Part shown: positions 3,068 to 29,310 of the stretch, piece by piece
Layout: every line of letters starts with the position of its first letter
How positions within the stretch are numbered: the first letter of the stretch is position 1
Virus record (IMG/VR): IMGVR_UViG_3300042402_003388
Coordinates: 36,551 to 100,550 of that record
DNA from: a virus
DNA length: 64,000 nucleotides
Reading direction: 5' to 3' (one strand)
The notes under the pieces: generated by a model
Database searches by the model: none
What the model was told of the DNA's origin: nothing
Seen by the model: only the letters and a program-made list of their open reading frames with translations
Made by a program: the position numbers and the translations under genes

Positions 3068-3742
3068 TTACCCCTTCTTAGATTTTACGATTTCATCAAT
3101 GATACCGTAATTAAGTGCCTCTTGTGAAGATAACCATAAGTCACGACTTGCATCTTTCATTACCTGTTTTGCCGTTTTATCACAGTAACTACCAAGTAAT
3201 TCAAATAGAGTCTCGTTGATTTTTTTCCATTCTTTCATATCGATTTCCGCATCTTGGATATTTCCACGGAATCCCCCTGAAGATTGGTGTAACATTGTTC
3301 TTGAGAAACGTAATGAAGAACGTTTTCCTTTAGTACCTGCACCTAACAATACTGAACCCATTGACGCCGCCATACCTGTGTTTACTGTACGGATATCACA
3401 TTTAATGTAATCCATTACGTCAACCATACTTAGACCTGATTTAACCGACCCACCTGGACTGTCAATGTGCATTGTGATGTCTGTACTGTCAGCAGAATCC
3501 AAGAACATTAACTGAGCTTGAACAATAGTTGACATATTATCATTAACCTCACCCGCAACCCATAAGATACGGTCTCTCATTAATCTTGAGAAGATGTCAA
3601 TTTGAGTTGCTCTCATTTCTCTTTCCTCCAAAATGTATGGAGTCATTGAATTCTCAATTTGTTTTGAGTAGTAATCCAAATGACTTGATGGTTTATACAA
3701 GTGTTTCGTGTAATACGATTTAAATTCTTTTGCGTTATCCAT
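3068..3742 (-). CDS. clpP: ATP-dependent Clp protease proteolytic subunit
   Basis: DIFSRLMRDRI, IDSPGGSV, GMAASMGS (catalytic Ser), TMLHQ (His), RDLWLS...YGIID. Confidence 0.97.
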   Translation of the reverse strand: MDNAKEFKSYYTKHLYKPSSHLDYYSKQIENSMTPYILEEREMRATQIDIFSRLMRDRILWVAGEVNDNMSTIVQAQLMFLDSADSTDITMHIDSPGGSVKSGLSMVDVMDYIKCDIRTVNTGMAASMGSVLLGAGTKGKRSSLRFSRTMLHQSSGGFRGNIQDAEIDMKEWKKINETLFELLGSYCDKTAKQVMKDASRDLWLSSQEALNYGIIDEIVKSKKG

Positions 3743-3761
3743 AGTTAAATTTTAAATTTAG

Positions 3762-3841
3762 TATCAGAGGAGGGACTCGAACCCTCACGCCGTAGCATAT
3801 GCTCCTAAGGCATACGTGTCTACCAATTCCACCACTCTGAT
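3762..3841 (-). tRNA. tRNA-Leu(TAG)
   Basis: ATCAGAG/CTCTGAT acceptor stem, CT-TAG-GA loop, long variable arm, GTTCGAGTC. Confidence 0.93.
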
Positions 3842-3844
3842 ATT

Positions 3845-4050
3845 TGGCCCCACCTGAGATTACGGTGAGTAGATATTCCTAGTTTTTCCTATTGAAAAAC
3901 CCTGCGTGTCTTACCACTTAAAACGTCAAACATACTCGGTGGATTTGTTACGTCCAGGCTCCGACGAACCCCCTCTCTAAAGTCGTGGAAGGCGACAACT
4001 ATAACATCTTGAAAGAACGTTACCAAACTTTCAGAGTATCTCTTACTCTT
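3845..4050 (-). ncRNA. possible structured RNA between the two tRNA-Leu genes
   Basis: Non-coding, GC-richer than genome, local hairpins, boxA variant GTTCTTTCAA at 4009-4018. Confidence 0.35.
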
Positions 4051-4052
4051 AG

Positions 4053-4138
4053 TACTCGGGGCGGGAATCGAACCCGCACGGACCTTACGGTCCATCAGAT
4101 TTTAAGTCTGACGTGTCTACCTATTCCACCACCCGAGC
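4053..4138 (-). tRNA. tRNA-Leu(TAA)
   Basis: GCTCGGG/CCCGAGT stem, TCAGA-CT-TAA-AA-TCTGA, long variable arm. Confidence 0.95.
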
Positions 4139-4140
4139 GT

Positions 4141-4165
4141 TTCAAAGAACTATGGTACAAATGTA
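4141..4165 (-). promoter_or_regulatory. Bacteroidota -7 element (TAcaTTTG) followed by boxA (GTTCTTTGAA)
   Basis: Minus strand reads TACATTTG-taccata-GTTCTTTGAA directly before tRNA-Leu(TAA). Confidence 0.7.
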
Positions 4166-4180
4166 CGAAAGAAATTTCAA

Positions 4181-4678
4181 TTAATCAAATCCCATCGAAC
4201 TTTTATATTCAATCCACACACGTTCAATTGAATTATTTAGAACATCTGAGAATAAGGATGGTTCATATGGTTTTGCCCTCATATTCAAACCCGCTTCTTG
4301 TGGTGTTCTGTCTGCTTTGTATAAATTACACTTATGACAACAAGTTACCAAGTTACTCCAAGTATTCTTACCACCCTTTGATTTTGGTATAACGTGGTCT
4401 AACGTTAATTGTTTTGTTGAACCACAATAAACACATTCTCCATTATCTCTTCTGTAAATTCTATTTCTGTTAACCCTAATATTCCTAACTCTGTATTTTA
4501 CATACTTCAATAGACGAATGATTAATGGACGAACAAAATTTTGATAACCTGCATAGATAGGGTTGTCGGAACTCTTTAAGATTTCCGCTTTACCTTTAAA
4601 CACTAACTTAAAACCTCTTTGAGGTGAAGTTACGTTTATTGGGGTATAATCCGAATTTAATACTAATACTCTATCCAT
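4181..4678 (-). CDS. HNH endonuclease (McrA/HNH_5-like)
   Basis: RDNGECVYCG...LTLDHVIPKSKGG...NLVTCCHKCNLYK. Confidence 0.93.
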   Translation of the reverse strand: MDRVLVLNSDYTPINVTSPQRGFKLVFKGKAEILKSSDNPIYAGYQNFVRPLIIRLLKYVKYRVRNIRVNRNRIYRRDNGECVYCGSTKQLTLDHVIPKSKGGKNTWSNLVTCCHKCNLYKADRTPQEAGLNMRAKPYEPSLFSDVLNNSIERVWIEYKSSMGFD

Positions 4679-8765: not shown

Positions 8766-8796
8766 TTTGACTTTTTACGTTACATACGTATATTTA
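8766..8796 (+). promoter_or_regulatory. near-consensus Bacteroidota promoter for leader 1
   Basis: TTTG(8766)-N19-TATATTTA(8789). Confidence 0.55.
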
Positions 8797-8819
8797 ATTA
8801 AAAACAAGTAAAACTGCAA

Positions 8820-8894
8820 ATGAAAACAACACATATCATACTAATAGGCGGGACAGATAGAACTGAAGCGACTACTCCAATGGAGATGGTGTGA
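8820..8894 (+). CDS. putative leader peptide 1 (24 aa, MKTTHIILIGGTDRTEATTPMEMV)
   Basis: Short ORF between promoter and terminator; codons match tRNA array 9015-11322. Confidence 0.8.
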   Translation: MKTTHIILIGGTDRTEATTPMEMV

Positions 8895-8918
8895 TATTCC
8901 TATACTATGAATTCACTG

Positions 8919-8947
8919 AACCCATCTCCAAAAGAGATGGGTTTTTT
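8919..8947 (+). terminator. attenuator terminator of leader 1
   Basis: AACCCATCTC-CAAAA-GAGATGGGTT-TTTT; CCATCTCCA (8922-8930) alternatively pairs with TGGAGATGG (8881-8889). Confidence 0.88.
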
Positions 8948-8967
8948 GTTTTTAGATTGTTAAACAT

Positions 8968-8998
8968 TTTGTTCTTTGAAATATTGGTTGTATCTTTG
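8968..8998 (+). promoter_or_regulatory. boxA (GTTCTTTGAA 8971-8980) overlapping a Bacteroidota promoter (TTTG-N19-TATCTTTG)
   Basis: Direct motif match; same boxA precedes five RNA-gene units. Confidence 0.7.
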
Positions 8999-9014
8999 TA
9001 AAAGATTTAAAAAT

Positions 9015-9086
9015 GGTCCCTTCGTCTATCGGTTAGGACATATCCCTTTCACGGATAAAAGACGGGTTCGATTCCCGTAGGGACTA
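9015..9086 (+). tRNA. tRNA-Glu(TTC)
   Basis: TATCC-CT-TTC-AC-GGATA, cloverleaf. Confidence 0.95.
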
Positions 9087-9107
9087 CAAAACTTAAAAAA
9101 TATTATT

Positions 9108-9371
9108 ATGCCAGAATTTAACACTTATGTTGATGTAGACGTTTACGAATTTATTGATGAATGTTCAAAAAGTGAAATTAATGAGTTAATTGACGATTTA
9201 ATTGATAGGGGTTACTTAAACAAAAATAGTAAAGGGGTTGGTAAACCACCGAAATATTCATTAATTGAGGAAACTCATAGAGATTATTGTGATGTTTTGG
9301 CGAATTCTTACCATAGAATGAGTAAGGAAGACGAAGAAACAATCGCGAATATTGCTAAAAAATATTCGTAA
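9108..9371 (+). CDS. hypothetical protein
   Basis: 87-aa ORF with phage-like codon use between tRNAs. Confidence 0.7.
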   Translation: MPEFNTYVDVDVYEFIDECSKSEINELIDDLIDRGYLNKNSKGVGKPPKYSLIEETHRDYCDVLANSYHRMSKEDEETIANIAKKYS

Positions 9372-9378
9372 TAAAAAT

Positions 9379-9452
9379 GGGGGTGTATGTCTCAAGGCCG
9401 ACGAGAATGATTTGCAATCAATCTGGGGTGAGTTCGATTCTCACCATCTCCA
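9379..9452 (+). tRNA. tRNA-Ala(TGC), atypical D arm
   Basis: GGGGGTG/CATCTCC with G3:U70 Ala identity pair, loop TT-TGC-AA, GTTCGATTC. Confidence 0.85.
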
Positions 9453-9456
9453 CAAT

Positions 9457-9547
9457 GTTATCATAGCTCAGTAGGATGAGGCCGCAATCGGATTCCTTTA
9501 AACAACGCGTGAGGGGCGGCTTTCACGATGTGGCTGAAGTGATAACA
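9457..9547 (+). ncRNA. tRNA-like RNA lacking a T arm
   Basis: GTTATCA/TGATAAC+A acceptor-like stem, TAGCTCAGTAGG D-like arm, internal helices, no TTCR loop. Confidence 0.5.
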
Positions 9548-9557
9548 AATAATATAT

Positions 9558-9629
9558 CGCGGGATAGAGCAGTGGTAGCTCGCAAGGCTCATAACCTTGA
9601 GGTCGGGGGTTCGAATCCCTCTCCCGCAA
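9558..9629 (+). tRNA. tRNA-fMet(CAT)
   Basis: C1:A72 mismatch, CAAGG-CT-CAT-AA-CCTTG. Confidence 0.92.
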
Positions 9630-9638
9630 CTAATATAT

Positions 9639-9712
9639 CGTGGGTTAGACTGGAGGTGGTTCCAGCTTGGTCTCATAAGCCAAAGACGGGGGTTCGAGTC
9701 CCTCACCCGCAA
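9639..9712 (+). tRNA. second, divergent initiator-type tRNA-Met(CAT)
   Basis: C1:A72 mismatch, TTGGT-CT-CAT-AA-GCCAA, extended D stem CTGGA/TCCAG. Confidence 0.8.
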
Positions 9713-9790
9713 CAAAGTGTCTCGGTCCGCTCTGACGAAAGTTAACGACGAGGTCTCGGTAGACAGAACGCGTCTGATTCTACCCAAAAT

Positions 9791-9863
9791 GCGAGAGTAG
9801 CTCAGTTGGTAGAGCACAACCTTGCCAAGGTTGGGGTCGCGGGTTCGAATCCCGTCTCTCGCT
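9791..9863 (+). tRNA. tRNA-Gly(GCC)
   Basis: Canonical cloverleaf, TT-GCC-AA. Confidence 0.97.
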
Positions 9864-9872
9864 CAATAATAA

Positions 9873-9945
9873 GCGGATATCGTATAATGGCTTATTACTT
9901 CAGCCTTCCAAGCTGAAGATGTGAGTTCGATTCTCACTATCCGCT
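9873..9945 (+). tRNA. tRNA-Gly(TCC)
   Basis: TCAGC-CT-TCC-AA-GCTGA. Confidence 0.96.
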
Positions 9946-9950
9946 CAAAA

Positions 9951-10023
9951 GGTCCCGTGGTTGAATGGTTACAATTCCACCCTGTCACGGTGCGAGGTAC
10001 GGGTTCGAATCCCGTCGGGACCG
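9951..10023 (+). tRNA. tRNA-Asp(GTC)
   Basis: CT-GTC-AC loop, G73. Confidence 0.92.
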
Positions 10024-10031
10024 CAAACTTT

Positions 10032-10103
10032 GGTCTATTCGTTCATCGGCTAGGATGCTACCCTGTCACGGTAGTGAGGAGGGTTCGATTCCCTCATAGA
10101 CCG
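10032..10103 (+). tRNA. tRNA-Asp(GTC), second variant
   Basis: CTACC-CT-GTC-AC-GGTAG, G73. Confidence 0.94.
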
Positions 10104-10133
10104 CAAAAATAAATTAATTTATACTTATTGAGT

Positions 10134-10292
10134 ATGGATAAAGAAAAATGGGATTCTGATGAATGGCAAGGGCGTTCTAAAGACAGGGTCGAAAAAAACA
10201 ATAAAGTTTTTGGATACTCTATATTACTTACAATACTTGGTACAGTAATTTGTTATTTATACGTCATAATATCCACTTATTTTAGATTTTGA
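10134..10292 (+). CDS. small membrane protein (52 aa)
   Basis: MDKEKWDSDEWQG... with C-terminal hydrophobic stretch; below ORF-track cutoff. Confidence 0.6.
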   Translation: MDKEKWDSDEWQGRSKDRVEKNNKVFGYSILLTILGTVICYLYVIISTYFRF

Positions 10293-10342
10293 TTTGTTAT
10301 TTCGTAAAAAATTTACTAAATTTGTAGTGTAAATAAAATATT

Positions 10343-10519
10343 ATGTGGGTAATTGTAAAATTAATGGAAAGTCTTAATGGTGTTAAAGTTCCTGTCATTA
10401 TCTTAGATGGACACTCAGAAATTTGGGAATTTGAAACTGAAGAAGAGGCGGTTAAAATGAGAGACATTTTTTCTAAAAACTCGGACTCAGGTCACGTTTA
10501 CTTAGTTAAAAAAGTCTAA
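10343..10519 (+). CDS. small hypothetical protein (58 aa)
   Basis: MWVIVKLMESLNG...; TAAATTTG promoter element at 10317-10324. Confidence 0.65.
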   Translation: MWVIVKLMESLNGVKVPVIILDGHSEIWEFETEEEAVKMRDIFSKNSDSGHVYLVKKV

Positions 10520-10524
10520 CAAAT

Positions 10525-10598
10525 GGTTCCGTAGCTCAGCTGGATAGAGCAACTGCCTTCTAAGCAGTAGGTCACAGGTTCGAATCCTGTCGGGACTA
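10525..10598 (+). tRNA. tRNA-Arg(TCT)
   Basis: ACTGC-CT-TCT-AA-GCAGT. Confidence 0.97.
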
Positions 10599-10613
10599 CT
10601 AAATTAAAAAATT

Positions 10614-10868
10614 ATGGTTGATATTAATCAAGATATTGTATTTGAGGAAGAACATAATGAGTTTATTAAAAGTGAGTTATTCTGTCAAATGATGAAAGAA
10701 AAAATAGAACATTCTGCGTATCATAAATTTGATGGTATTGCACCTGAAGGATTTACGTTGGTACCAAATGAGGTGTTAGAAGAACTTAAGGACTTTGACA
10801 ATTGGAAGGAGTTTAAATACGATTTAGAATGGATTAAGAAAAATTCTATAAAGTATTTGGTAGTTTAA
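10614..10868 (+). CDS. hypothetical protein
   Basis: 84-aa ORF. Confidence 0.65.
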   Translation: MVDINQDIVFEEEHNEFIKSELFCQMMKEKIEHSAYHKFDGIAPEGFTLVPNEVLEELKDFDNWKEFKYDLEWIKKNSIKYLVV

Positions 10869-10885
10869 CTTATAAAAAATAATAT

Positions 10886-11164
10886 ATGAAAAAATTTGCA
10901 CCATACGTATTAGTACTTATTTGGTTTTTAGTTATTGGGTTATTGGCGTTCTTATTGACAGGATGTAAAAATAAGAATAAAATAGAACCTGGTGATAAAG
11001 TAGTTAAATGTGTAATTGATAGTGTTTCAACTGAAGGACCTCGTTCAACTATTGAACCGTATGTAAGATATTATTACTATACCAAATGTGGTGAAAGACT
11101 TATTACCAATCGAGATGACATTTACAAAATTGGGGACACGATAACTTACGTATATAAAAAATAA
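10886..11164 (+). CDS. putative lipoprotein
   Basis: MKK + hydrophobic stretch + LTGC lipobox. Confidence 0.7.
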   Translation: MKKFAPYVLVLIWFLVIGLLAFLLTGCKNKNKIEPGDKVVKCVIDSVSTEGPRSTIEPYVRYYYYTKCGERLITNRDDIYKIGDTITYVYKK

Positions 11165-11169
11165 AATAA

Positions 11170-11242
11170 GCCTCCTTAGCTCAGCTGGTAGAGCACTTCA
11201 CTTGTAATGAAGGGGTCGTAGGTTCGAATCCTACAGGAGGCT
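11170..11242 (+). tRNA. tRNA-Thr(TGT)
   Basis: CTTCA-CT-TGT-AA-TGAAG. Confidence 0.97.
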
Positions 11243-11248
11243 CAAATT

Positions 11249-11322
11249 GGTCCTTTAGCTCAGTTGGTTAGAGCAGCTCACTCATAATGAGAAGGTCACA
11301 GGTTCAAGTCCTGTATGGACCA
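11249..11322 (+). tRNA. tRNA-Ile2(CAT, lysidine type; reads ATA)
   Basis: GGTCCTT acceptor with C4:G69/C5:G68, CT-CAT-AA, GTTCAAGTC T loop as in bacterial Ile2. Confidence 0.85.
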
Positions 11323-11343
11323 CAAATATCTAAAAACACAAAT

Positions 11344-11526: not shown

Positions 11527-11802
11527 ATGAAAAGTTACCTGATTATTAGAGAGGATTATTTTAATGAAAAAGGAATTGGTAACAATACTCATTTCTGTAT
11601 TAAAGAATCTAAAAAATTTTTATGGTTTGAATGGTGGTCGTACGTGAAATACAAAGAATGTTACGAAAGTGGTTCATATAACACTGTTTTAAAGTTCACT
11701 AATTTATATGAAGCAGAAAAATTTGTTAATGAAGTTTTGTTAAAAAACGGACCAAGACAAAAATGGTCATCTATGACCCTAAAAGAAATAAAAGAAAAAT
11801 GA
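11527..11802 (+). CDS. hypothetical protein
   Basis: 91-aa ORF after TATATTTG element. Confidence 0.65.
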   Translation: MKSYLIIREDYFNEKGIGNNTHFCIKESKKFLWFEWWSYVKYKECYESGSYNTVLKFTNLYEAEKFVNEVLLKNGPRQKWSSMTLKEIKEK

Positions 11803-12386
11803 AAACGATATTTTTAGACCACGATGGAGTAATCTGTTTATCCACAGAGTGGGGTGGTCGTTACAAGAAACAAAAAAAATGGGGAGAACTTAAAATGTCT
11901 ATGGGGATGAATGAAATCCCTATTGAATTTAGATTTGACAATTTTAATAAGAAGGCAATCAAAATTCTGAATTCAATTATTGAAGAAACTGGTGCTGAGA
12001 TAGTAGTTTCATCTGATTGGAAACGATGGGCAACTGTTGAGGAAATGGGACAATACTACGAATCTCAAGGGATTATCAAAAAACCAATCTCATTTACTCC
12101 AAACTTAAGTGAATGTAATAACTATGATGGTTCATTTCCTTGGAATAGAGATTGGGATTTAGAACAAACTCGTACATTAGAAATTAACCAATATTTGAAG
12201 GACCATCCTGAGGTGACAGAATGGGTTGCAATCGATGACCTTAATATGGGAAAAGAGGGGATGTCATATTCAATTAAATGGGTTCACGATTGGGGTTTAG
12301 ATAATTTTGTACTAACACCAAAAGGTAATGAAGGGTTAAAACAATCAGGAATTAAAGAAAAAGTTTTATCTTTTTTAATAAAATAA
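11799..12386 (+). CDS. HAD-family phosphatase (RNA-repair 'Swiss Army Knife' HAD_SAK_2-like)
   Basis: IFLDHDGVI, IVVSSDWK, WVAIDD. Confidence 0.8.
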   Translation: MKTIFLDHDGVICLSTEWGGRYKKQKKWGELKMSMGMNEIPIEFRFDNFNKKAIKILNSIIEETGAEIVVSSDWKRWATVEEMGQYYESQGIIKKPISFTPNLSECNNYDGSFPWNRDWDLEQTRTLEINQYLKDHPEVTEWVAIDDLNMGKEGMSYSIKWVHDWGLDNFVLTPKGNEGLKQSGIKEKVLSFLIK

Positions 12387-12393
12387 AAAAATA

Positions 12394-12424
12394 TTTGACA
12401 ATTACGGAATTTTTCGTAACTTTG
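12394..12424 (+). promoter_or_regulatory. consensus Bacteroidota promoter for leader 2
   Basis: TTTG(12394)-N19-TAACTTTG(12417). Confidence 0.8.
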
Positions 12425-12469
12425 TAGTAATTATAGAAACAGGTAGAAATACCACAACAAATAGAAAAA

Positions 12470-12580
12470 ATGAAAAACACTAATAAACATATGAACGTCG
12501 TGATTTGGAAACAACAATTTAGTAATTGTTCGTATCCGCGTATTTCGCATACAAGTTCAGTTGATGAAGGTTTAGTGTAA
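12470..12580 (+). CDS. putative leader peptide 2 (36 aa, MKNTNKHMNVVIWKQQFSNCSYPRISHTSSVDEGLV)
   Basis: Short ORF between promoter and terminator; codons 6-24 sample all 15 tRNA types of array 12687-15825. Confidence 0.85.
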   Translation: MKNTNKHMNVVIWKQQFSNCSYPRISHTSSVDEGLV

Positions 12581-12614
12581 TGTAAATAAAATAACATACA
12601 ACAAATATCTCAAG

Positions 12615-12646
12615 TCCTGAACTCAAAAAGTTCAGGATTTTTTTTT
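12615..12646 (+). terminator. attenuator terminator of leader 2
   Basis: TCCTGAACT-CAAAA-AGTTCAGGA-T9; CTGAACT alternatively pairs with AGTTCAG (12554-12560). Confidence 0.9.
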
Positions 12647-12656
12647 GTTATAAAGT

Positions 12657-12666
12657 GTTCTTTGAC
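12657..12666 (+). promoter_or_regulatory. boxA antitermination element
   Basis: GTTCTTTGAC followed by ATATTGG, same context as 8971. Confidence 0.7.
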
Positions 12667-12686
12667 ATATTGGTAAGAAAAGTAAA

Positions 12687-12758
12687 CGGGGTGTAGTCTC
12701 GAGGAGAGACGCGTGTTTTGGGAACACGAGGCGGCAGGTTCGACTCCTGTCACCCCGA
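12687..12758 (+). tRNA. tRNA-Pro(TGG)
   Basis: CGTGT-TT-TGG-GA-ACACG, short atypical D loop. Confidence 0.9.
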
Positions 12759-12764
12759 CTATAT

Positions 12765-12838
12765 TGTCACATAGCTCAGTTGGTTAGAGCGTTCGCCTGA
12801 TACGCGAAAGGTCGATGGTTCGAGTCCATCTGTGACAA
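12765..12838 (+). tRNA. tRNA-Ile(GAT)
   Basis: TTCGC-CT-GAT-AC-GCGAA. Confidence 0.95.
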
Positions 12839-12844
12839 CTTAAT

Positions 12845-12919
12845 GTCTTCGTAGCTCAGTTGGTTTAGAGCACCTCACTTTTAATGAGGGAGTCACAGGT
12901 TCGAGTCCTGTCGGGGACA
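12845..12919 (+). tRNA. tRNA-Lys(TTT)
   Basis: CCTCA-CT-TTT-AA-TGAGG. Confidence 0.95.
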
Positions 12920-12925
12920 CAATAT

Positions 12926-12997
12926 GGTCGGTTGGCCGAGTGGCTTAGGCGATAGTCTGCAAAACTATCTACACAGGTTCGATTCCTGTACCGACCT
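12926..12997 (+). tRNA. tRNA-Cys(GCA)
   Basis: ATAGT-CT-GCA-AA-ACTAT, U73. Confidence 0.96.
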
Positions 12998-13002
12998 CAA
13001 AT

Positions 13003-13075
13003 ACGTCTGTAGCTCAGTTGGTAGAGCACTGGTCTCCAAAACCAGGTGTCGGTGGTTCGAATCCATCCAGGCGTG
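13003..13075 (+). tRNA. tRNA-Trp(CCA)
   Basis: CTGGT-CT-CCA-AA-ACCAG. Confidence 0.96.
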
Positions 13076-13079
13076 CAAT

Positions 13080-13153
13080 GACTCAGTAGCTCAGGGGTTT
13101 AGAGCAGTTGACTGTTAATCAACGGGTCGTAGGTTCGATTCCTACCTGGGTCG
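13080..13153 (+). tRNA. tRNA-Asn(GTT)
   Basis: GTTGA-CT-GTT-AA-TCAAC. Confidence 0.96.
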
Positions 13154-13156
13154 CAA

Positions 13157-13291
13157 TAGGTTGATTAGGGAATGATTGTACTGATAGTTCGAGAGTGAAT
13201 ACTGACTAGTACAATCGGAGTTTGCAGGTATTCACCCGAGTAATGCTAATCGTAAAAACAGATGTCCACTGAACCATCTTCTGTTTTCCTA
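13157..13291 (+). ncRNA. unassigned structured RNA with kissing-loop/pseudoknot
   Basis: GATTGTACT/AGTACAATC hairpin whose loop GTGAATAC is complementary to GTATTCAC; closing helices GATTAG/CTAATC and TAGG/CCTA. Confidence 0.6.
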
Positions 13292-13295
13292 AATT

Positions 13296-13376
13296 GGGAG
13301 TGTTGAGCAACGGTTGCTTAGCTGACTGTAAATCAGTGGTCTTACGACATTGGGGGTTCGAATCCCTCCACTCCCA
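13296..13376 (+). tRNA. tRNA-Tyr(GTA)
   Basis: GCTGA-CT-GTA-AA-TCAGT, long variable arm. Confidence 0.93.
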
Positions 13377-13382
13377 CAAAAT

Positions 13383-13411
13383 AAAAAAGGGGATATAAAT
13401 CCCCTCTTTTT
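13383..13411. terminator. bidirectional hairpin terminator
   Basis: AAAAAAGGGGAT-ATAA-ATCCCCTCTTTTT. Confidence 0.7.
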
Positions 13412-13429
13412 CGATTAGGTCGTTATCAA

Positions 13430-13594
13430 TTATTTCTGTTTAGCAATAATTGACCATACACCACCAACTAATGTAACTGCAGCTCCGATAAGTTCTTGAA
13501 CTGTTGAATCAGTTGCAAGACCTTTCATAATCAGGATACCACCCACAAAAGTAAGTGCGTGTCTAACGATACCTTGGATTTGTTCTTTAGTCAT
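13430..13594 (-). CDS. small two-TM holin-like protein (54 aa)
   Basis: MTKEQIQGIVRHALTFVGG...GGVWS; TATTTAT motif upstream; antisense insertion within tRNA array. Confidence 0.7.
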   Translation of the reverse strand: MTKEQIQGIVRHALTFVGGILIMKGLATDSTVQELIGAAVTLVGGVWSIIAKQK

Positions 13595-13650
13595 TATAAA
13601 TTTGATTAAAGGTTTATGCCAGACTATAAATATTGGAAAAACGGTCAAAC

Positions 13651-13721
13651 TGTCCTTTCGTCTAATGGCAGGACACGTGGTTTTGGTCCACGCGGTGGAG
13701 GTTCGAATCCTCCAGGGACAA
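13651..13721 (+). tRNA. tRNA-Gln(TTG)
   Basis: CGTGG-TT-TTG-GT-CCACG, U1:A72. Confidence 0.94.
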
Positions 13722-13775
13722 CAAGGGGTTAGGTGGAAACCCAAGAGTAGGTGATGAGTCTACGTCCACCAAAAT

Positions 13776-13847
13776 ACCGATGTAGCTCAGTGGTAGAGCA
13801 CTTCTTTCATACGGAAGGTGTCGGAAGTTCAATTCTTCCCATCGGTA
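13776..13847 (+). tRNA. tRNA-Met(CAT), elongator type
   Basis: ACCGATG/CATCGGT, CTTCT-TT-CAT-AC-GGAAG. Confidence 0.85.
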
Positions 13848-13853
13848 CTTAAC

Positions 13854-13928
13854 AGTTCCTTAGCTCAGTTGGTTTAGAGCACTTCTTTTACACGGAAGGG
13901 GTCGTAGGTTCGAATCCTACAGGGACTA
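13854..13928 (+). tRNA. tRNA-Val(TAC)
   Basis: CTTCT-TT-TAC-AC-GGAAG. Confidence 0.94.
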
Positions 13929-13935
13929 CAAAATG

Positions 13936-13972
13936 CCAAACTCGGTAGTAAAACACGTCCAAACTCGGTAGT
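13936..13972 (+). repeat. 14-bp direct repeat x2 (CCAAACTCGGTAGT)
   Basis: 13936-13949 and 13959-13972. Confidence 0.9.
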
Positions 13973-13983
13973 TTTAAAAAAAG

Positions 13984-14093
13984 TTTGGTGAATTGAAAAA
14001 TGTTTCATACCTTTGTATTCACAAACAACGGGGGGTAGGAGTTAGTAAGTCGGTGGCCTACCCCCCCTGAGACAAGATAGAAAGTTCTTTGAA
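13984..14093 (+). promoter_or_regulatory. promoter + GC-rich hairpin + boxA (rrn-leader-like)
   Basis: TTTG-N20-TACCTTTG; GGGGGGTAGG/CCTACCCCCC (14030-14066); GTTCTTTGAA (14084). Confidence 0.7.
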
Positions 14094-14103
14094 TTAAAAT
14101 ACT

Positions 14104-14237
14104 GATAATGGTTTTCCCCACTCAACGGATGTCGACAATCCAGAATGGAATCGGAATTCAGCACCCCCTGCCGAGGCCTCGTAAAACTACGATTAAGCAG
14201 TTAAGATTGGAGCGAGATGGGTACTCCAACATTATCA
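14104..14237 (+). ncRNA. unassigned RNA closed by acceptor-like stem
   Basis: GATAATG/CATTATC+A with adjacent TTGGAG/CTCCAA hairpin in T-arm position. Confidence 0.5.
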
Positions 14238-14242
14238 TACTT

Positions 14243-14315
14243 GGAACGGTAGCTCAGTTGGTAGAGCACTTGCCTGAAGAGCAAGGTGTCGGCGGTTCGA
14301 TTCCGCCCCGTTCCA
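14243..14315 (+). tRNA. tRNA-Phe(GAA)
   Basis: CTTGC-CT-GAA-GA-GCAAG. Confidence 0.96.
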
Positions 14316-14389
14316 CGGAGTCCTGAAATAACAGGAAACCCCCACTCCCATATGGCAGCCAGTCCATTAACCTGGTGAAGTGGGGTAAT

Positions 14390-14523
14390 AGTCGAGTGGG
14401 CGTAATGAGGGATGGTACCCGAGTCCCCAAGACCAATAGTCCCAGACACTTGTGGGTTCTATGGAGTCGTAAGGTTGTCTAATCCGTCTTGAACGGTATT
14501 CGGTTCGAGTCCGACCTTGACTA
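14390..14523 (+). ncRNA. oversized tRNA-like RNA A (134 nt)
   Basis: AGTCGAG/CTTGACT+A acceptor, TCGG-TTCGAGT-CCGA T arm, expanded centre. Confidence 0.65.
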
Positions 14524-14529
14524 CAAAAT

Positions 14530-14631
14530 AGTCAGGAGTCCATTGGTTGGAGTCACCTCCCCAAGGTTGAGTAACAGTAAGGCTGACTCTTTATGGCAAA
14601 GACGGAACAGGTTCGAATCCTGTCCTGACTA
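14530..14631 (+). ncRNA. oversized tRNA-like RNA B (102 nt)
   Basis: AGTCAGG/CCTGACT+A acceptor, ACAGG-TTCGAAT-CCTGT T arm, enlarged anticodon-position loop. Confidence 0.7.
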
Positions 14632-14847
14632 CACGAGTCGAGTAGTATACGACTAGTTTGCTCCCGAATGATGAGAAGTGGTGTTACAACCATAGGGACC
14701 TGAGCCGATTACTTGAGTCTAAGTCGGTTGGTTAGTGTACCAGTAACAGGAGTAAGTTAACACACAAGTTCTAACCCCTCACGAAATTGGTGAGTTGCCG
14801 CTGAAATTCGGTATTGGGGACAGTCAAAAATGATTGAACGACTATAT

Positions 14848-14921
14848 GGTGGTTATAGCTCAGTTGGTAGAGCACTTGATTGTGGTTCAAGGTGTCACGG
14901 GTTCGATTCCCGTTAATCACC
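14848..14921 (+). tRNA. tRNA-His(GTG)
   Basis: G-1:C73, CTTGA-TT-GTG-GT-TCAAG. Confidence 0.96.
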
Positions 14922-14927
14922 CAAAAA

Positions 14928-15015
14928 GGAGGAATGGCAGAGTGGTCGATTGCACTAGTCTTGAAAACTAGCGTACCGAAAGGTACCGTAGGTTCGAATC
15001 CTACTTCCTCCGCCA
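14928..15015 (+). tRNA. tRNA-Ser(TGA)
   Basis: CTAGT-CT-TGA-AA-ACTAG, long variable arm, encoded CCA. Confidence 0.97.
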
Positions 15016-15017
15016 AA

Positions 15018-15424
15018 GACCCCACGATTAACGGAAGTATCCGACCGTTACGGAGTGTGAACCTGACTTGAAGGCTTCAAGGCTATGGGGGAGGCAACAC
15101 AAACAAACAAGGATTCCCCATTATGGATTAAGGGGGTAAGGGGCTTTAATTAGTCGTAATACAATCCACAAGTTGTAAGAATACTGAACAATCTTACAAT
15201 ACACACTCAGCTTCCGAGTGAGACTCGCCACGTAACTTTGGGGGTAGGGTGAAGATGTTCTGAGGGTAACCCTGAAATATGGGTGAGAGTAGAAACCCAC
15301 CGTGGACGGTTACTATGGGCTAACGAATCTTAGTCATATCGGTGAGGGATACTAATGACGCCAGACTATATTAAAAACTAAAAGGTTCTCCTCAAAGGCG
15401 GAGGGACGATTCAGGACCTTTTTT
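15018..15424 (+). ncRNA. unassigned structured non-coding region ending in a terminator-like hairpin
   Basis: No ORF, GC-richer, hairpins TTGTAAGA/TCTTACAA, CACTC/GAGTG, CTTGAAG/CTTCAAG; AAAAGGTTCT...AGGACCTTTTTT at end. Confidence 0.45.
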
Positions 15425-15452
15425 AATCCTACACTTAAAAAATCTAAAATAT

Positions 15453-15656
15453 ATGACAGACAAATTACAAGAGTTGTTAGAAACATCTCAAATCGGTGAG
15501 CCCGAAATTGTTGACTTATTAAACTCAATGTACAAATTGGTTGAAACTAAATTATTTACACAGGATGAGTTCAATGTTGTGTTAGATAGGTTAGGAATCA
15601 AACAAGAAGGGAATTCCTTCATTTTTAATGAAGATATGGTTTATACCTTCAATTAA
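15453..15656 (+). CDS. hypothetical protein
   Basis: 67-aa ORF. Confidence 0.65.
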   Translation: MTDKLQELLETSQIGEPEIVDLLNSMYKLVETKLFTQDEFNVVLDRLGIKQEGNSFIFNEDMVYTFN

Positions 15657-15662
15657 AAGTAT

Positions 15663-15734
15663 AGTCCCTTGGTGTAACGGATAGCACGAAACACTACGGA
15701 TGTTTTAGTGGGGGTTCGAATCCCTCAGGGACTA
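15663..15734 (+). tRNA. tRNA-Arg(ACG)
   Basis: AAACA-CT-ACG-GA-TGTTT. Confidence 0.93.
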
Positions 15735-15739
15735 CTATT

Positions 15740-15825
15740 GGAAGATTACCCAAGTTGGTGAAGGGGCTTGTTTGCTAAACAAGTAGGACTGTAAGGTCGC
15801 GAGGGTTCGAGCCCCTCATCTTCCG
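15740..15825 (+). tRNA. tRNA-Ser(GCT)
   Basis: CTTGT-TT-GCT-AA-ACAAG, long variable arm. Confidence 0.95.
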
Positions 15826-15829
15826 CACA

Positions 15830-16372
15830 TTATCTTAATTGATTATATACCGATAACGACTTATTAATGAATACCTTTCTGTCTGATTTTTGATAACAGT
15901 CGGATGCGAAATATCCATCAGCGTCATACCTATCAATATGGAATCTTGTATCACCAATAGTTTCAATAGACACTATAAAGTTATGACTATCGATATACCC
16001 AACCCTAATAATGTTACCAATCAATCTATTAGAGTTATCTTTATTTGATTGACCAAAACTTATAAAATCAGCGTCAATATCTTTAATATTATCCCATAGT
16101 TCAGGATGTAGTAATGTGTCGTCATCATTTGAGTATACATAACCATCCTTAATCATATCAATAGCGTAATTTCGTTGTGCGTGGCCTGCGGTACTTCTCG
16201 GATTTCTATGTAAATACGTCTCACAATTATCAGGAATTAACTTTTTGTCGGGTAGTTCGTCAAAATCAAAAACAACTATCCATCGATAATTTTCTTTTGG
16301 GATGTTTATACTTTCAGAGATTAAATGTAAATTCTCAGGTCTACTACAAGGTGTTATGATATTTAATTTCAT
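15830..16372 (-). CDS. GT-A glycosyltransferase
   Basis: IITPCSR, QRNYA, SNDDD. Confidence 0.8.
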   Translation of the reverse strand: MKLNIITPCSRPENLHLISESINIPKENYRWIVVFDFDELPDKKLIPDNCETYLHRNPRSTAGHAQRNYAIDMIKDGYVYSNDDDTLLHPELWDNIKDIDADFISFGQSNKDNSNRLIGNIIRVGYIDSHNFIVSIETIGDTRFHIDRYDADGYFASDCYQKSDRKVFINKSLSVYNQLR

Positions 16373-24649: not shown

Positions 24650-25035
24650 TGGTGGAGATGGAGAGATTCGAACTCTCGTCTTGTTCACTTTACATATAAG
24701 TGACTACACGTTTAGGTCAACATTTTCTAATGTTCCGAAATTCACAATTCCCTTATTTTATAGTGGTTCGGTTTACTGAGAACTAATCCTCCACTTGTTT
24801 CTTTTCAGATAGAAACCACACCTATAAAGACTTCTGTTCCTAGGTTATAAGTCCGCCGACCCGAATGTTTTTGTGCTTACGCTACAGAAACAAGCTCATC
24901 TTGTTTAACAAGACCTAATAGAGCCATTTTGTCTAAAACGTTGCCGTTTACAGTTTTGAATCAGTTTTTACGGAATTAATTCAGTTCCGACGTGCCACCG
25001 ATACGCAACAATGCCAATCGATTCCATTCATCCCC
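24650..25035 (-). ncRNA. ssrA: tmRNA; tag GNVLDKMALLGLVKQDELVSVA (24945-24877)
   Basis: 5' GGGGATG, 3' GAGAGTTCGAATCTCTCCATCTCCACCA, G3:U pair, TAAAC-GGC resume site; promoter and boxA upstream, terminator 24613-24647. Confidence 0.93.
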
Positions 25036-25119
25036 ATATTTTCAAAGAACATTACAAAGATACGATTTGTTTTTTAAATATCCAAATGTTCGTTGTATTT
25101 ATTGTTAAAGTAAATATAG

Positions 25120-27070: not shown

Positions 27071-27289
27071 ATGAAGTATTTTATACGATATACACTTTCT
27101 TGGGTTTCTCAAAATTTATCAATACCATTTTGGGTTGTTGGACATATTCATTTAACTATGAACATATATGACGACATTTATGAAATATTGGCATCTTTAG
27201 GAATGAATATTATCGTTGGGTTAGGGTTTTATTTAGATTATATTGATTATCAAAAAGATAAAATAAAGAATAAAAAAAAGGGGTTTTAA
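27071..27289 (+). CDS. small membrane protein
   Basis: Hydrophobic 72-aa ORF between two terminators (27021-27049, 27272-27300). Confidence 0.65.
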   Translation: MKYFIRYTLSWVSQNLSIPFWVVGHIHLTMNIYDDIYEILASLGMNIIVGLGFYLDYIDYQKDKIKNKKKGF

Positions 27290-29310
27290 ACCCCTTTTTT
27301 CTTTTTAGTTTGTACTGTTACATTTTCCCCATCCTCGGTAATAAGAACATATTTAACCTCTTCTTTAAGATTACCTTTAAGAACCTCCTCAGAGATATAA
27401 TCTTCGACTTTATCCTGAATTGCTCTCTTCAAAGGACGAGCCCCATACATTTCATCAAAACCTACTTTAGAAATCATTTTTGAGATTGATTCGTCAAAAG
27501 TGATTTGATATTTCATATTATCTAAACGAACTTTTAATTTATCTAACTCAATTGCCACAATCTTATCCACATCATTCTGACCAAGACTATTAAAGATAAT
27601 TGTATCGTCAATACGGTTTAAGAACTCAGGTGAGAAAAATTTCTTTAACTCCTTCTGTAGAGTTTGTTTTCTTAATTCTTCATTAACGAATGCGTTATTA
27701 GAATTAGAGAACCCAACACCATTACCAAAGTCTTGTAGTTTTTTAACCCCCAAGTTAGATGTCATAATGATGATACAATTTTTGAAGTTAATCTTACGAC
27801 CTAATCCATCGGTCATATGACCATCATCTAACATTTGTAGTAAAGATGAAAAGATATCTTTGTTCGCTTTCTCAATTTCATCAAACAAGATTACAGAGTA
27901 AGGTTTGTTTTTAACTTGTTCAGTTAATTGGCCACCCTCATCGTACCCAACGTATCCTGGAGGGGCCCCAATCAAACGAGATACTGTGTGTTTCTCTTGA
28001 TACTCGGACATATCTACACGAATTAACGAATCCTCACTACCAAAAACTTCTTTCGCCAATTGTTTAGCTAAGTAAGTTTTACCGACACCTGTAGAACCCA
28101 AGAAAATGAATGAACCGATAGGACGATTTGGGTCTTTAATTCCCAAACGATTTCTACGGATTGATTTGGCAATACGTTTAACCGCTTCTTCCTGCCCGAT
28201 AACTTTGTTATTTAAAGTTTTATCTAAATCAACCAAAGCTTTAGTATCGTCAGCATTTAACTTACTAACAGGAATTTTAGTCATATTTGAGACTACATCA
28301 TAAACTAACTCTAAAGACACTTCTTTACGTTTAGTTGTTAGGTCTTGCTCAAATTTTTTCTTCTCATCATCAAGTTTAGCCAAAACTTTTCTTTCCTTAT
28401 CTCTAAGTTCCGCAGCCTCTTCGTATCGTTGGTTTTTTACCACTTCAACCTTTTGATTTTTAATCTCCTGAGCCTTAACCTTCAACTCTTCAATGATTTC
28501 AGGTAATTTCATATCAACCTGACTACGAGCCCCAACCTCATCAAGAATGTCGATTGCTTTATCAGGGAATTCTCTATCTGTGATATAACGTTCCGCTAAA
28601 GTTACACAAGTCTCAAGAACTTCATCACTAAAGGATACTTTATGGAATCCCTCATACTTGTCTTTAAGATTTTTAAGAATAACTAAAGTTTCTTCTTTAG
28701 TTGCCCCATCGACAATTACTTTTTGAAAACGACGTTCTAACGCCCCATCCTTCTCAAAGTTTTTACGATATTCGTCTAATGTGGTAGCTCCGATACATTG
28801 GATTTCACCACGAGCAAGTGCTGGTTTAAAGATATTTGATGCGTCTAATGAACCTGAAGAATTACCCGCCCCAACTATTGTATGAATTTCATCAATAAAA
28901 ATGATAATATCAGGGTTAGCTTGAAGTTCTTCAATAAGAACCTTCATTCTTTCTTCAAATTGTCCACGGTATTTAGTACCAGCAACAATTGAAGTCATAT
29001 CTAATGAAAGAATTCTTTTGTCTGCCAAATTTCTTGGGCAATCTCCTTCATAGATTTTCATTGCCAAACCTTCAACAATTGCGGTTTTACCACAACCAGG
29101 TTCCCCAATGATAATTGGATTATTTTTCTTTCTACGGGAAAGTATTTGAGCGATACGTAAGATTTCTTTTTCTCTACCAACCACAGGGTCTAATTTACCT
29201 TGTTCTGCAAGTTTAATCAAATCACGACTAAAATTGTCTAATGCGGGTGTTGATGAGTCAGAAGGTCGTTTGTTCTCTTTTCTGTTGTCATTGTCCATTG
29301 ATTCTATCAT
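27286..29310 (-). CDS. clpC: ClpC-type AAA+ unfoldase lacking the N-terminal domain
   Basis: GEPGCGKT and GSTGVGKT Walker A, UVR M-domain [12 protein letters not shown] ClpP-docking loop. Confidence 0.92.

Follow-up and report, generated by a model that had tools for sequence, protein, structure and literature searches.

In the attenuators of enterobacterial amino-acid operons, which include trpL, hisL, leuL, pheL and the multivalent thrL and ilvGMEDA leaders, a promoter-proximal short open reading frame (ORF) with regulatory codons is followed by a terminator ahead of the first structural gene, and an exclusive antiterminator has its upstream strand covered by the ribosome at the ORF end. 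The leu leader uses rare codons as its sensors. The pheST attenuator, with its pheM leader, senses one amino acid and controls a synthetase, and T-boxes bind uncharged tRNA directly, without translation. To our knowledge, all described leader-peptide attenuators control genes for amino-acid biosynthesis or for synthetases, regulation of phage tRNA genes is almost unknown, and the reason why large phages carry near-complete tRNA sets is debated. Here, we analyzed a stretch of 64,000 nucleotides (nt), hereafter the window, from an uncultured giant phage (positions 36,551 to 100,550 of IMG/VR record IMGVR_UViG_3300042402_003388, which has 100,550 bp and is about one third complete by estimate). 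Directly upstream of an array of 15 tRNA genes (array 2), the window holds a short leader ORF (leader 2) with associated RNA structures, and this region is probably a ribosome-mediated (trp-type), multivalent leader-peptide attenuator that senses a shortage in decoding and gates the phage tRNA array.

The leader 2 region has every structural feature of a leader-peptide attenuator that can be tested in sequence, namely a short ORF, matching codons, a terminator and an exclusive antiterminator, and it places these parts as the amino-acid operon attenuators do. It differs from them in what lies downstream, which is 15 tRNA genes and not genes for amino-acid biosynthesis or a synthetase, in a sensor that devotes roughly one codon to each tRNA, for as many as 15 tRNAs, instead of a run of one or two amino acids, and in its setting in a Bacteroidota phage with a boxA-like element following. 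Its rare G-ending sensor codons parallel the rare Leu codons of the leu leader. Like pheM and the T-boxes, it would answer a specific tRNA state and control a component of the decoding apparatus; unlike them, it would sense many tRNAs through translation, and neither the Rfam leader models (Thr_leader, Leu_leader, His_leader, Trp_leader, Phe_leader) nor T-box gave a match at the gathering score. Leader-peptide attenuation is a known form of control; for the use proposed here, on tRNA genes, we found no published account.

The nearest published regulated accessory tRNA array is the trn operon of Anabaena sp. PCC 7120, which is controlled at the promoter by the repressor TrcR on direct repeats (PMC8421152, PMC10272220). 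As proposed here for the phage, that array stays off unless translation is impaired; it differs in that TrcR acts at the promoter, and a leader, attenuation or a terminator is not mentioned (PMC8421152). Full-text literature searches found no relevant report of tRNA arrays or operons controlled by a leader peptide or an attenuator.

Leader 2 samples every tRNA of its downstream array

Array 2 consists of exactly 15 tRNA genes (12687-15826, plus strand), as called by ARAGORN and Rfam, in the order Pro-tgg, Ile-gat, Lys-ttt, Cys-gca, Trp-cca, Asn-gtt, Tyr-gta, Gln-ttg, Met-cat, Val-tac, Phe-gaa, His-gtg, Ser-tga, Arg-acg and Ser-gct. The parts upstream of it are as follows.

12394-12424, plus strand: promoter of leader 2, Bacteroidota type (TTTG, 19 nt, TAACTTTG), a pattern match with a predicted start near 12432
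12470-12580, plus strand: leader ORF 2, 36 codons from ATG to TAA
12485-12541, plus strand: sensor segment, codons 6-24 of leader 2, with at least one codon for each of the 15 tRNAs
12554-12623, plus strand: antiterminator, in which the strand 12554-12564 (codons 29-32) pairs with 12610-12623, the terminator 5' arm, with inner helices between
12612-12648, plus strand: intrinsic terminator (attenuator), with a 12-bp stem, a 5-nt loop and nine T
12657-12673, plus strand: boxA-like element, GTTCTTTGA, one base, then ATATTGG, between the terminator and the first tRNA

Along the window, the order is promoter, short ORF, sensor codons, antiterminator strand, terminator and tRNA genes. The original prediction, that codons 6-24 sample all 15 tRNAs of the array, held when the array was called anew with ARAGORN and Rfam, and all of the codons it listed are present. 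The two Ser tRNAs are represented by AGT and TCG, and Arg-acg by CGT. A residue check agreed that codons 5-27 encode array amino acids only; the six foreign residues of the leader are Thr4, Thr28, Asp32, Glu33, Gly34 and Leu35. Four of these six had been placed in the antiterminator segment; only Asp32 belongs to its narrow 11-nt strand, with Glu33, Gly34 and Leu35 found among the inner helices of that structure.

The match between leader 2 and array 2 is not a product of chance. We scanned the whole 100,550-bp record in six frames (68,549 stop-free stretches of 19 codons) and found that a typical stretch covers 6-7 of the 15 array-2 anticodons. Among the stretches listed, those scoring 13-15 all lie inside leader ORF 2, the full score of 15 is reached only there, and other frames in the record reach at most about 12. 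Leader 2 is also the only run in the record that is built solely of the 14 array amino acids and contains all 14. With residues drawn independently at the phage's own amino-acid frequencies, the probability that 19 residues comprise all 14 of these amino acids and nothing else is 2.3e-8 per stretch.

The terminator stem-loop (12612-12640) with its nine T has a predicted energy of -14.5 kcal/mol (z-score -4.72). When the terminator 3' arm was left out, the predicted fold of 12553-12624 was the antiterminator, at -14.0 kcal/mol (z-score -3.18; one of 200 shuffles was as good). The two structures are isoenergetic, and the predicted pairing of 12554-12564 with 12610-12623, as an alternative to the terminator, was borne out by this fold. 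Its upstream strand lies 25-17 nt before the stop codon of leader 2. As had been claimed, all sensor codons are upstream of this strand, the last ending at 12541 and the strand starting at 12554. From this geometry, a ribosome stalled on the sensor codons would leave the strand at 12554 free, and one that has reached the stop codon (12578) would mask the antiterminator or melt it. No promoter-like site was found between the terminator and tRNA-Pro (12647-12686).

At permissive thresholds, Rfam models searched against 12380-12690 gave Thr_leader at 17 bits against a threshold of 55. The highest-scoring match of this permissive scan was a sub-threshold manA-II hit at 12490-12643 on the plus strand (22 bits, with a gathering score of 100; E 0.11), which the terminator probably accounts for.

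A second leader precedes the other large array of the same phage

Upstream of array 2, the window carries a sister cassette with a differently composed array.

8766-9014, plus strand: leader 1 cassette, with a promoter at 8766-8796 (same type as that of leader 2) and an ORF at 8820-8894
8882-8891, 8918-8944 and 8971-8987, plus strand: antiterminator strand, terminator and boxA of leader 1
9015-11323, plus strand: array 1, with tRNAs Glu, Ala, Met (CAT) x3, Gly-gcc, Gly-tcc, Asp x2, Arg-tct and Thr

Codons 10-21 of leader 1 read 8/8 array-1 anticodons, which is the best match to array 1 in the whole record. The two Gly tRNAs are met by GGC and GGG, and Arg-tct by AGA, where leader 2 has CGT for Arg-acg. 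Scored as F1 between leader and array, the two leaders reached 0.79 and 0.91 with their own arrays and 0.47 and 0.32 when the arrays were swapped. Leader 1 repeats the design of leader 2, with an isoenergetic antiterminator (-16.8 kcal/mol, z-score -3.5) and terminator (-16.4 kcal/mol, z-score -4.1). No third, Leu-rich leader was found before the minus-strand pair of Leu tRNAs (3761-4138), which has a promoter and boxA only.

Leaders and arrays covary in related phages

Relatives were collected by a motif scan of IMG/VR that returned at least 115 loci (numbered with an L), many with large tRNA arrays differing in order and content; all counts for relatives rest on the loci listed. We then used a pipeline blind to composition, which took terminators of -11 kcal/mol or lower with a tRNA within 220 nt, defined the leader ORF by its most upstream ATG and an end no more than 80 nt before the terminator, and counted as the array all tRNAs on the same strand until the next leader or a gap of 1.5 kb. 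This yielded 53 candidate leaders, 34 of them non-redundant, and 23 non-redundant leaders with a Met-Lys or Met-Arg start.

Paired with their own arrays, leaders showed a coverage of 0.91, a precision of 0.59 and an F1 of 0.685, versus 0.80, 0.50 and 0.565 (standard deviation 0.016) under permuted pairing; none of 20,000 permutations reached the observed value. Swapping arrays within genomes gave 0.78 for own and 0.35 for swapped arrays. Across the 23 leaders, the amino acid of an array tRNA was present in the leader in 199 of 202 cases, versus 141 of 235 (60%) for amino acids lacking an array tRNA (Cochran-Mantel-Haenszel test stratified by amino acid, p 5e-20), and leader composition follows the array. 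Trp and Tyr never occurred in a leader when their own tRNA was absent from an array not cut by the locus end. Individual loci follow the same rule: at L031, a leader with eight Leu and four Arg precedes a Leu-Arg-Leu array, and at L035 a Leu/Ser/His/Tyr-rich leader stands ahead of Tyr, Ser, His and Leu tRNAs. At L031, a homologue of leader 2 shows a gained Glu and missing Asn and Pro, changes that its array mirrors exactly.

The anatomy is kept as well. The short ORF is retained in relatives, starts with Met-Lys or Met-Arg and has its stop codon mostly 22-37 nt before the terminator, and a Bacteroidota promoter precedes 13 of the 23 leaders as a full match or a -7 box. For 18 of the 34 candidates, upstream pairing of the terminator 5' arm outperforms 95% of dinucleotide shuffles (mean z-score -2.1). 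The antiterminator partner lies mostly at -25 to +1 nt relative to the stop codon, where the ORF tail copies the terminator 3' arm; because the position of this partner strand is kept though terminator sequences differ, both strands have changed together. Array-matching residues peak at 77% in the middle of the ORF, compared with 65% for codons 2-7 at the N-terminus and 53% for the final eight codons, where the antiterminator strand is encoded. Eight relatives have just 9-23 nt between the T-tract and the first tRNA, too short a distance to hold a promoter. L002, the nearest relative (with a neighbouring protein 85% identical), was uninformative for covariation because its leaders are nearly identical to those described here, with substitutions falling in the ORF tail; no tRNAs were found at L003.

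We also observed a His at residue 5-7 in 16 of the 23 non-redundant leaders (Met-Lys-x-x-x-x-His), with or without a His tRNA in the array. In the window, the His codons are at 12488-12490 (leader 2) and 8832-8834 (leader 1, whose array has no His tRNA); His makes up 1.5% of the phage proteins. The early His might reflect common descent, or it might act in initiation or pausing.

Rare, G-ending codons are favored in the sensor segments

Selection in the leaders acts at the level of codons. Leaders of arrays with only Arg-acg contained nine CGN and two AGA codons, and those of arrays with only Arg-tct nine AGR and one CGC (p 0.0019). Similarly, leaders contained eight CTN and no TTR codons where the array had only Leu-tag, and four TTR and no CTN codons where it had only Leu-taa (p 0.002).

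Codon choice within amino acids was equally skewed in the sensor segments, which in the window are 12485-12541 and 8847-8888. In four-codon boxes, NNG accounted for 45% of codons in sensor segments versus 10% in phage genes (p 1e-22; leaders 1, 2 and loci L005-L117), and for Lys, Gln and Glu the G-ending codon accounted for 42% versus 21%. There was no shift between NNC and NNT in the sensor segments, so the G-ending preference is not a general G+C effect. We read it as selection on codon identity in the leaders. In leader 2, the rare codons GTC, GTG, TCG (x2) and CCG each make up 6-9% of their synonymous sets (6-15% with CGT included), and leader 1 has GGC (2%), GGG and GCG. The phage tRNAs for the G-ending sensor codons all have U34 and would read NNG by wobble only. 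By analogy, selection of the slowest codon for each tRNA is what should be expected of a stalling sensor. A preference for rare G-ending codons in mid-leader is, as far as we have seen, previously unreported.

A boxA-like element follows both leader terminators

A boxA-like motif, which resembles the core of E. coli boxA, stands after both leader terminators and ahead of every stable-RNA unit of the phage. All six copies in the phage record (6/6) lie just before stable-RNA genes, namely arrays 1 and 2, tRNA-Phe within array 2, the Leu pair, the gene for transfer-messenger RNA (tmRNA) and a lone tRNA. Copies in the window are at 12657-12673, 8971-8987, 14084-14092, 4142-4150 (minus strand) and 25042-25050 (minus strand), with lengths of 9-17 nt and ATATTGG often following. 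Three of the six begin 4-7 nt after a canonical -7 box, i.e. at the RNA 5' end.

A scan of bacterial genomes placed the identical 17-mer mostly in Bacteroidota, Sphingobacteriia and Chitinophagia among them. Five Bacteroidota rRNA operons carry it within the 16S-23S spacer, downstream of tRNA-Ala and 90-210 nt ahead of 23S, and the genera with this arrangement are Pedobacter, Flavihumibacter, Niabella and Deminuibacter. Ribosomal RNA operons hold a second boxA in the spacer before 23S (PMC10250234). The phage 17-nt motif is identical to the 23S-upstream motif of Sphingobacteriia and Chitinophagia spacers; the phage copies differ from these rrn elements in preceding tRNA arrays and a tmRNA gene, and NusB/NusE binding to them is predicted. 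The motif is therefore probably a copy of boxA, which, by analogy with rRNA operons, probably loads host Nus factors on polymerases entering untranslated stable-RNA genes. We also considered the motif as a promoter, which its location before 23S in host rRNA spacers and its start just past -7 boxes in three copies rule out. Since boxA must be transcribed and 12647-12686 has no promoter-like site, array 2 would be entered from the leader promoter through the terminator. The copy suggests a host in Sphingobacteriia or Chitinophagia, and such copies could serve as a practical host-prediction marker for uncultured phages of this kind. A literature search with the motif string plus boxA returned primer lists only.

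Array 2 is interrupted after its seventh tRNA

Two caveats raised earlier, a hairpin terminator at 13383 and an internal promoter at 14008, proved correct, and array 2 is divided as follows.

12687-13377, plus strand: proximal part, tRNAs Pro, Ile, Lys, Cys, Trp, Asn and Tyr
13383-13410, both strands: bidirectional hairpin terminator after tRNA-Tyr, which also ends the antisense holin gene
13433-13594, minus strand: holin gene, 54 amino acids (Pfam Phage_holin_10, E 8e-18), between tRNA-Tyr and tRNA-Gln
13651-13929, plus strand: tRNAs Gln, Met and Val
13984-14015, plus strand: internal promoter, canonical (TTTG, 20 nt, TACCTTTG), with its -7 box at 14008
about 14030-14067 and 14084-14092, plus strand: G+C-rich hairpin, then second boxA core, between the internal promoter and tRNA-Phe
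14243-15826, plus strand: distal part, tRNAs Phe, His, Ser-tga, Arg-acg and Ser-gct, with two gaps of about 0.5-0.65 kb

Owing to the interruption from 13383-13410 onward, the attenuator would, as judged from the arrangement, certainly gate the first seven tRNAs, and the distal eight probably also have expression of their own. For these eight, attenuation may supplement a basal level, or polymerase modified by Nus factors may run through the weak internal hairpin.

Long gaps without a tRNA or Rfam match lie within array 2 at 14093-14242, 14317-14848 and 15016-15662. The first sits between boxA and tRNA-Phe, and the last contains a 67-codon ORF (15453-15656) with no Pfam match.

Proposed mechanism and alternative explanations

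In the proposed mechanism, transcription would start from the promoter at 12394-12424 and ribosomes would load on the 36-codon leader. When all sensor codons are decoded fast, the ribosome at the ORF end would cover or melt 12554-12564, allowing the terminator at 12612-12646 to form and the polymerase to halt before the tRNA genes. When any sensor codon is slow, with its matching tRNA scarce, cleaved or uncharged, the ribosome would stall upstream; the freed strand would pair with the terminator 5' arm, and the polymerase would continue past boxA, probably recruiting host Nus factors as in rRNA operons, into the tRNA genes. The new tRNAs would relieve the stall, amounting to negative-feedback control of supply. 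We hold the anatomy and the leader-array rule with high confidence; the direction of the switch and its physiological trigger, both of which we infer, as we do translation of the ORF and Nus binding at boxA, are held with moderate confidence.

Several observations weigh against this reading. Folding with a masked ribosome, which had been proposed as a check, did not give the anticipated result: the equilibrium folds still favored the terminator, with no flip to the antiterminator. The switch would therefore have to be kinetic, as in the trp attenuator, and thermodynamics alone cannot reveal it in such models. Array 2 is probably not one transcription unit, given the hairpin and antisense holin gene after the seventh tRNA and the promoter and boxA before tRNA-Phe; despite this interruption, the distal eight tRNAs too have codons in leader 2. 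A -7 box separates the terminator from the first tRNA in 7 of the 23 relatives, and leader 1 has a possible extra one at the same place, so that some arrays may also have an attenuator-independent promoter. Leaders hold many residues without a tRNA in the array, Ser codon class in relatives showed no significant relation to the isoacceptor, and L002 (at 3151-3226 and 3959-4186) keeps GGC in its leader 1 though ARAGORN finds no Gly-gcc tRNA in array 1 there. Finally, relatives share ancestry and the p-values overstate their independence; the many different array compositions indicate repeated change despite this shared ancestry.

An attenuator with the same parts might instead gauge general translation capacity or amino-acid starvation (charged tRNA, ribosomes). 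Stalling cannot tell an absent from an uncharged tRNA, a leader with 14 amino acids responds to nearly any shortage, the antiterminator should form by default without translation, and general translational stress induces the tRNA operon of Anabaena (PMC8421152). Yet the leaders track the tRNAs of their own arrays and differ between the two arrays of one phage, and their Arg and Leu codon classes follow the isoacceptor, which a general gauge would not need; we consider such a gauge unlikely. That the ORF and terminator form an independent mini-gene or an insulator against upstream transcription, with the tRNAs transcribed from promoters of their own and the peptide having another role or none, is a good deal less probable. 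The promoter at 13984-14015, the -7 boxes past the terminator in relatives and leader 1, and the Leu pair, tmRNA and lone tRNA, which have promoter and boxA without a leader, are in keeping with it; it conflicts with the lack of a promoter-like site in 12647-12686 and with the 9-23 nt between T-tract and tRNA in eight relatives, and it leaves leader-array covariation, rare-codon bias and the conserved antiterminator in the ORF tail without a reason.

The logic of the switch could also run the other way, with smooth translation giving read-through and stalling giving termination, a positive feedback once phage tRNAs are available. The direction has been deduced from geometry only, and the antiterminator strand could be freed by fast termination and departure of the ribosome. 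Against such a reversal, which we rate as slightly more improbable still, the strand falls in the last eight codons with the stop codon mostly 22-37 nt before the terminator, which is the trp/his arrangement with blocking at the stop, and a stall at the sensor codons, given their distance upstream, would not cover the strand. That an AT-rich spacer resembles the array by chance is hardly credible: the region was picked after the sequence had been viewed and ORFs of 20-40 codons are common, but the match is a unique maximum genome-wide, exactly upstream of the array, and recurs at array 1 and in about 23 non-redundant relatives with different arrays.

Beyond the attenuator of tRNA supply favored here, we lean, with less assurance, towards a wider view in which large phages of Bacteroidota run a codon-resolved homeostat of tRNA supply. 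Each tRNA block would have its own attenuator, with one codon per tRNA, preferably rare, G-ending and read by wobble, and a boxA borrowed from the host; loss of any single tRNA species, for example to host anticodon nucleases or phage-induced decay of host tRNA, would be detected and that set replaced on demand. If this is true, the phage gauges how fast each codon is decoded and makes tRNAs as they are needed, phage tRNAs are tied directly to tRNA-targeting host defences and to host shut-off, and classical attenuation extends to tRNA genes and to Bacteroidota. The sensor design, with one codon per tRNA and rare wobble codons, is unusual. Dozens of natural leader variants with different arrays offer a ready-made mutational series, and leader-reporter fusions could report the supply of individual tRNAs in the cell.

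Genomic setting

The window encodes 28 tRNAs and one tmRNA, together with a large terminase subunit, portal, major head protein, ClpP and an ATP-dependent protease. The terminase has at most 28% identity to any cultured phage, with a Flavobacterium phage as its top match, and a megablast of 12000-16000 against cultured phages returned tRNA-sized matches only; on these comparisons, no cultured phage appears close to this record. Readable promoters are of the Bacteroidota type (TTTG, about 19 nt, TAnnTTTG).

The gene directly 5' of leader 2 (11763-12386, plus strand) encodes an HAD domain of 'Swiss Army Knife' RNA-repair proteins (Pfam HAD_SAK_2, E 3e-21), which hints at a region dealing with damaged tRNA. 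The tmRNA gene and the two protease genes lie elsewhere in the window.

24650-25035, minus strand: tmRNA (Rfam, 99.6 bits), preceded by a Bacteroidota promoter of its own and by boxA (7 nt upstream), and lacking a leader ORF
3071-3742, minus strand: ClpP gene (Pfam E 3e-58)
27289-29310, minus strand: large ATP-dependent protease gene (PHROG 4871, E 1e-239)

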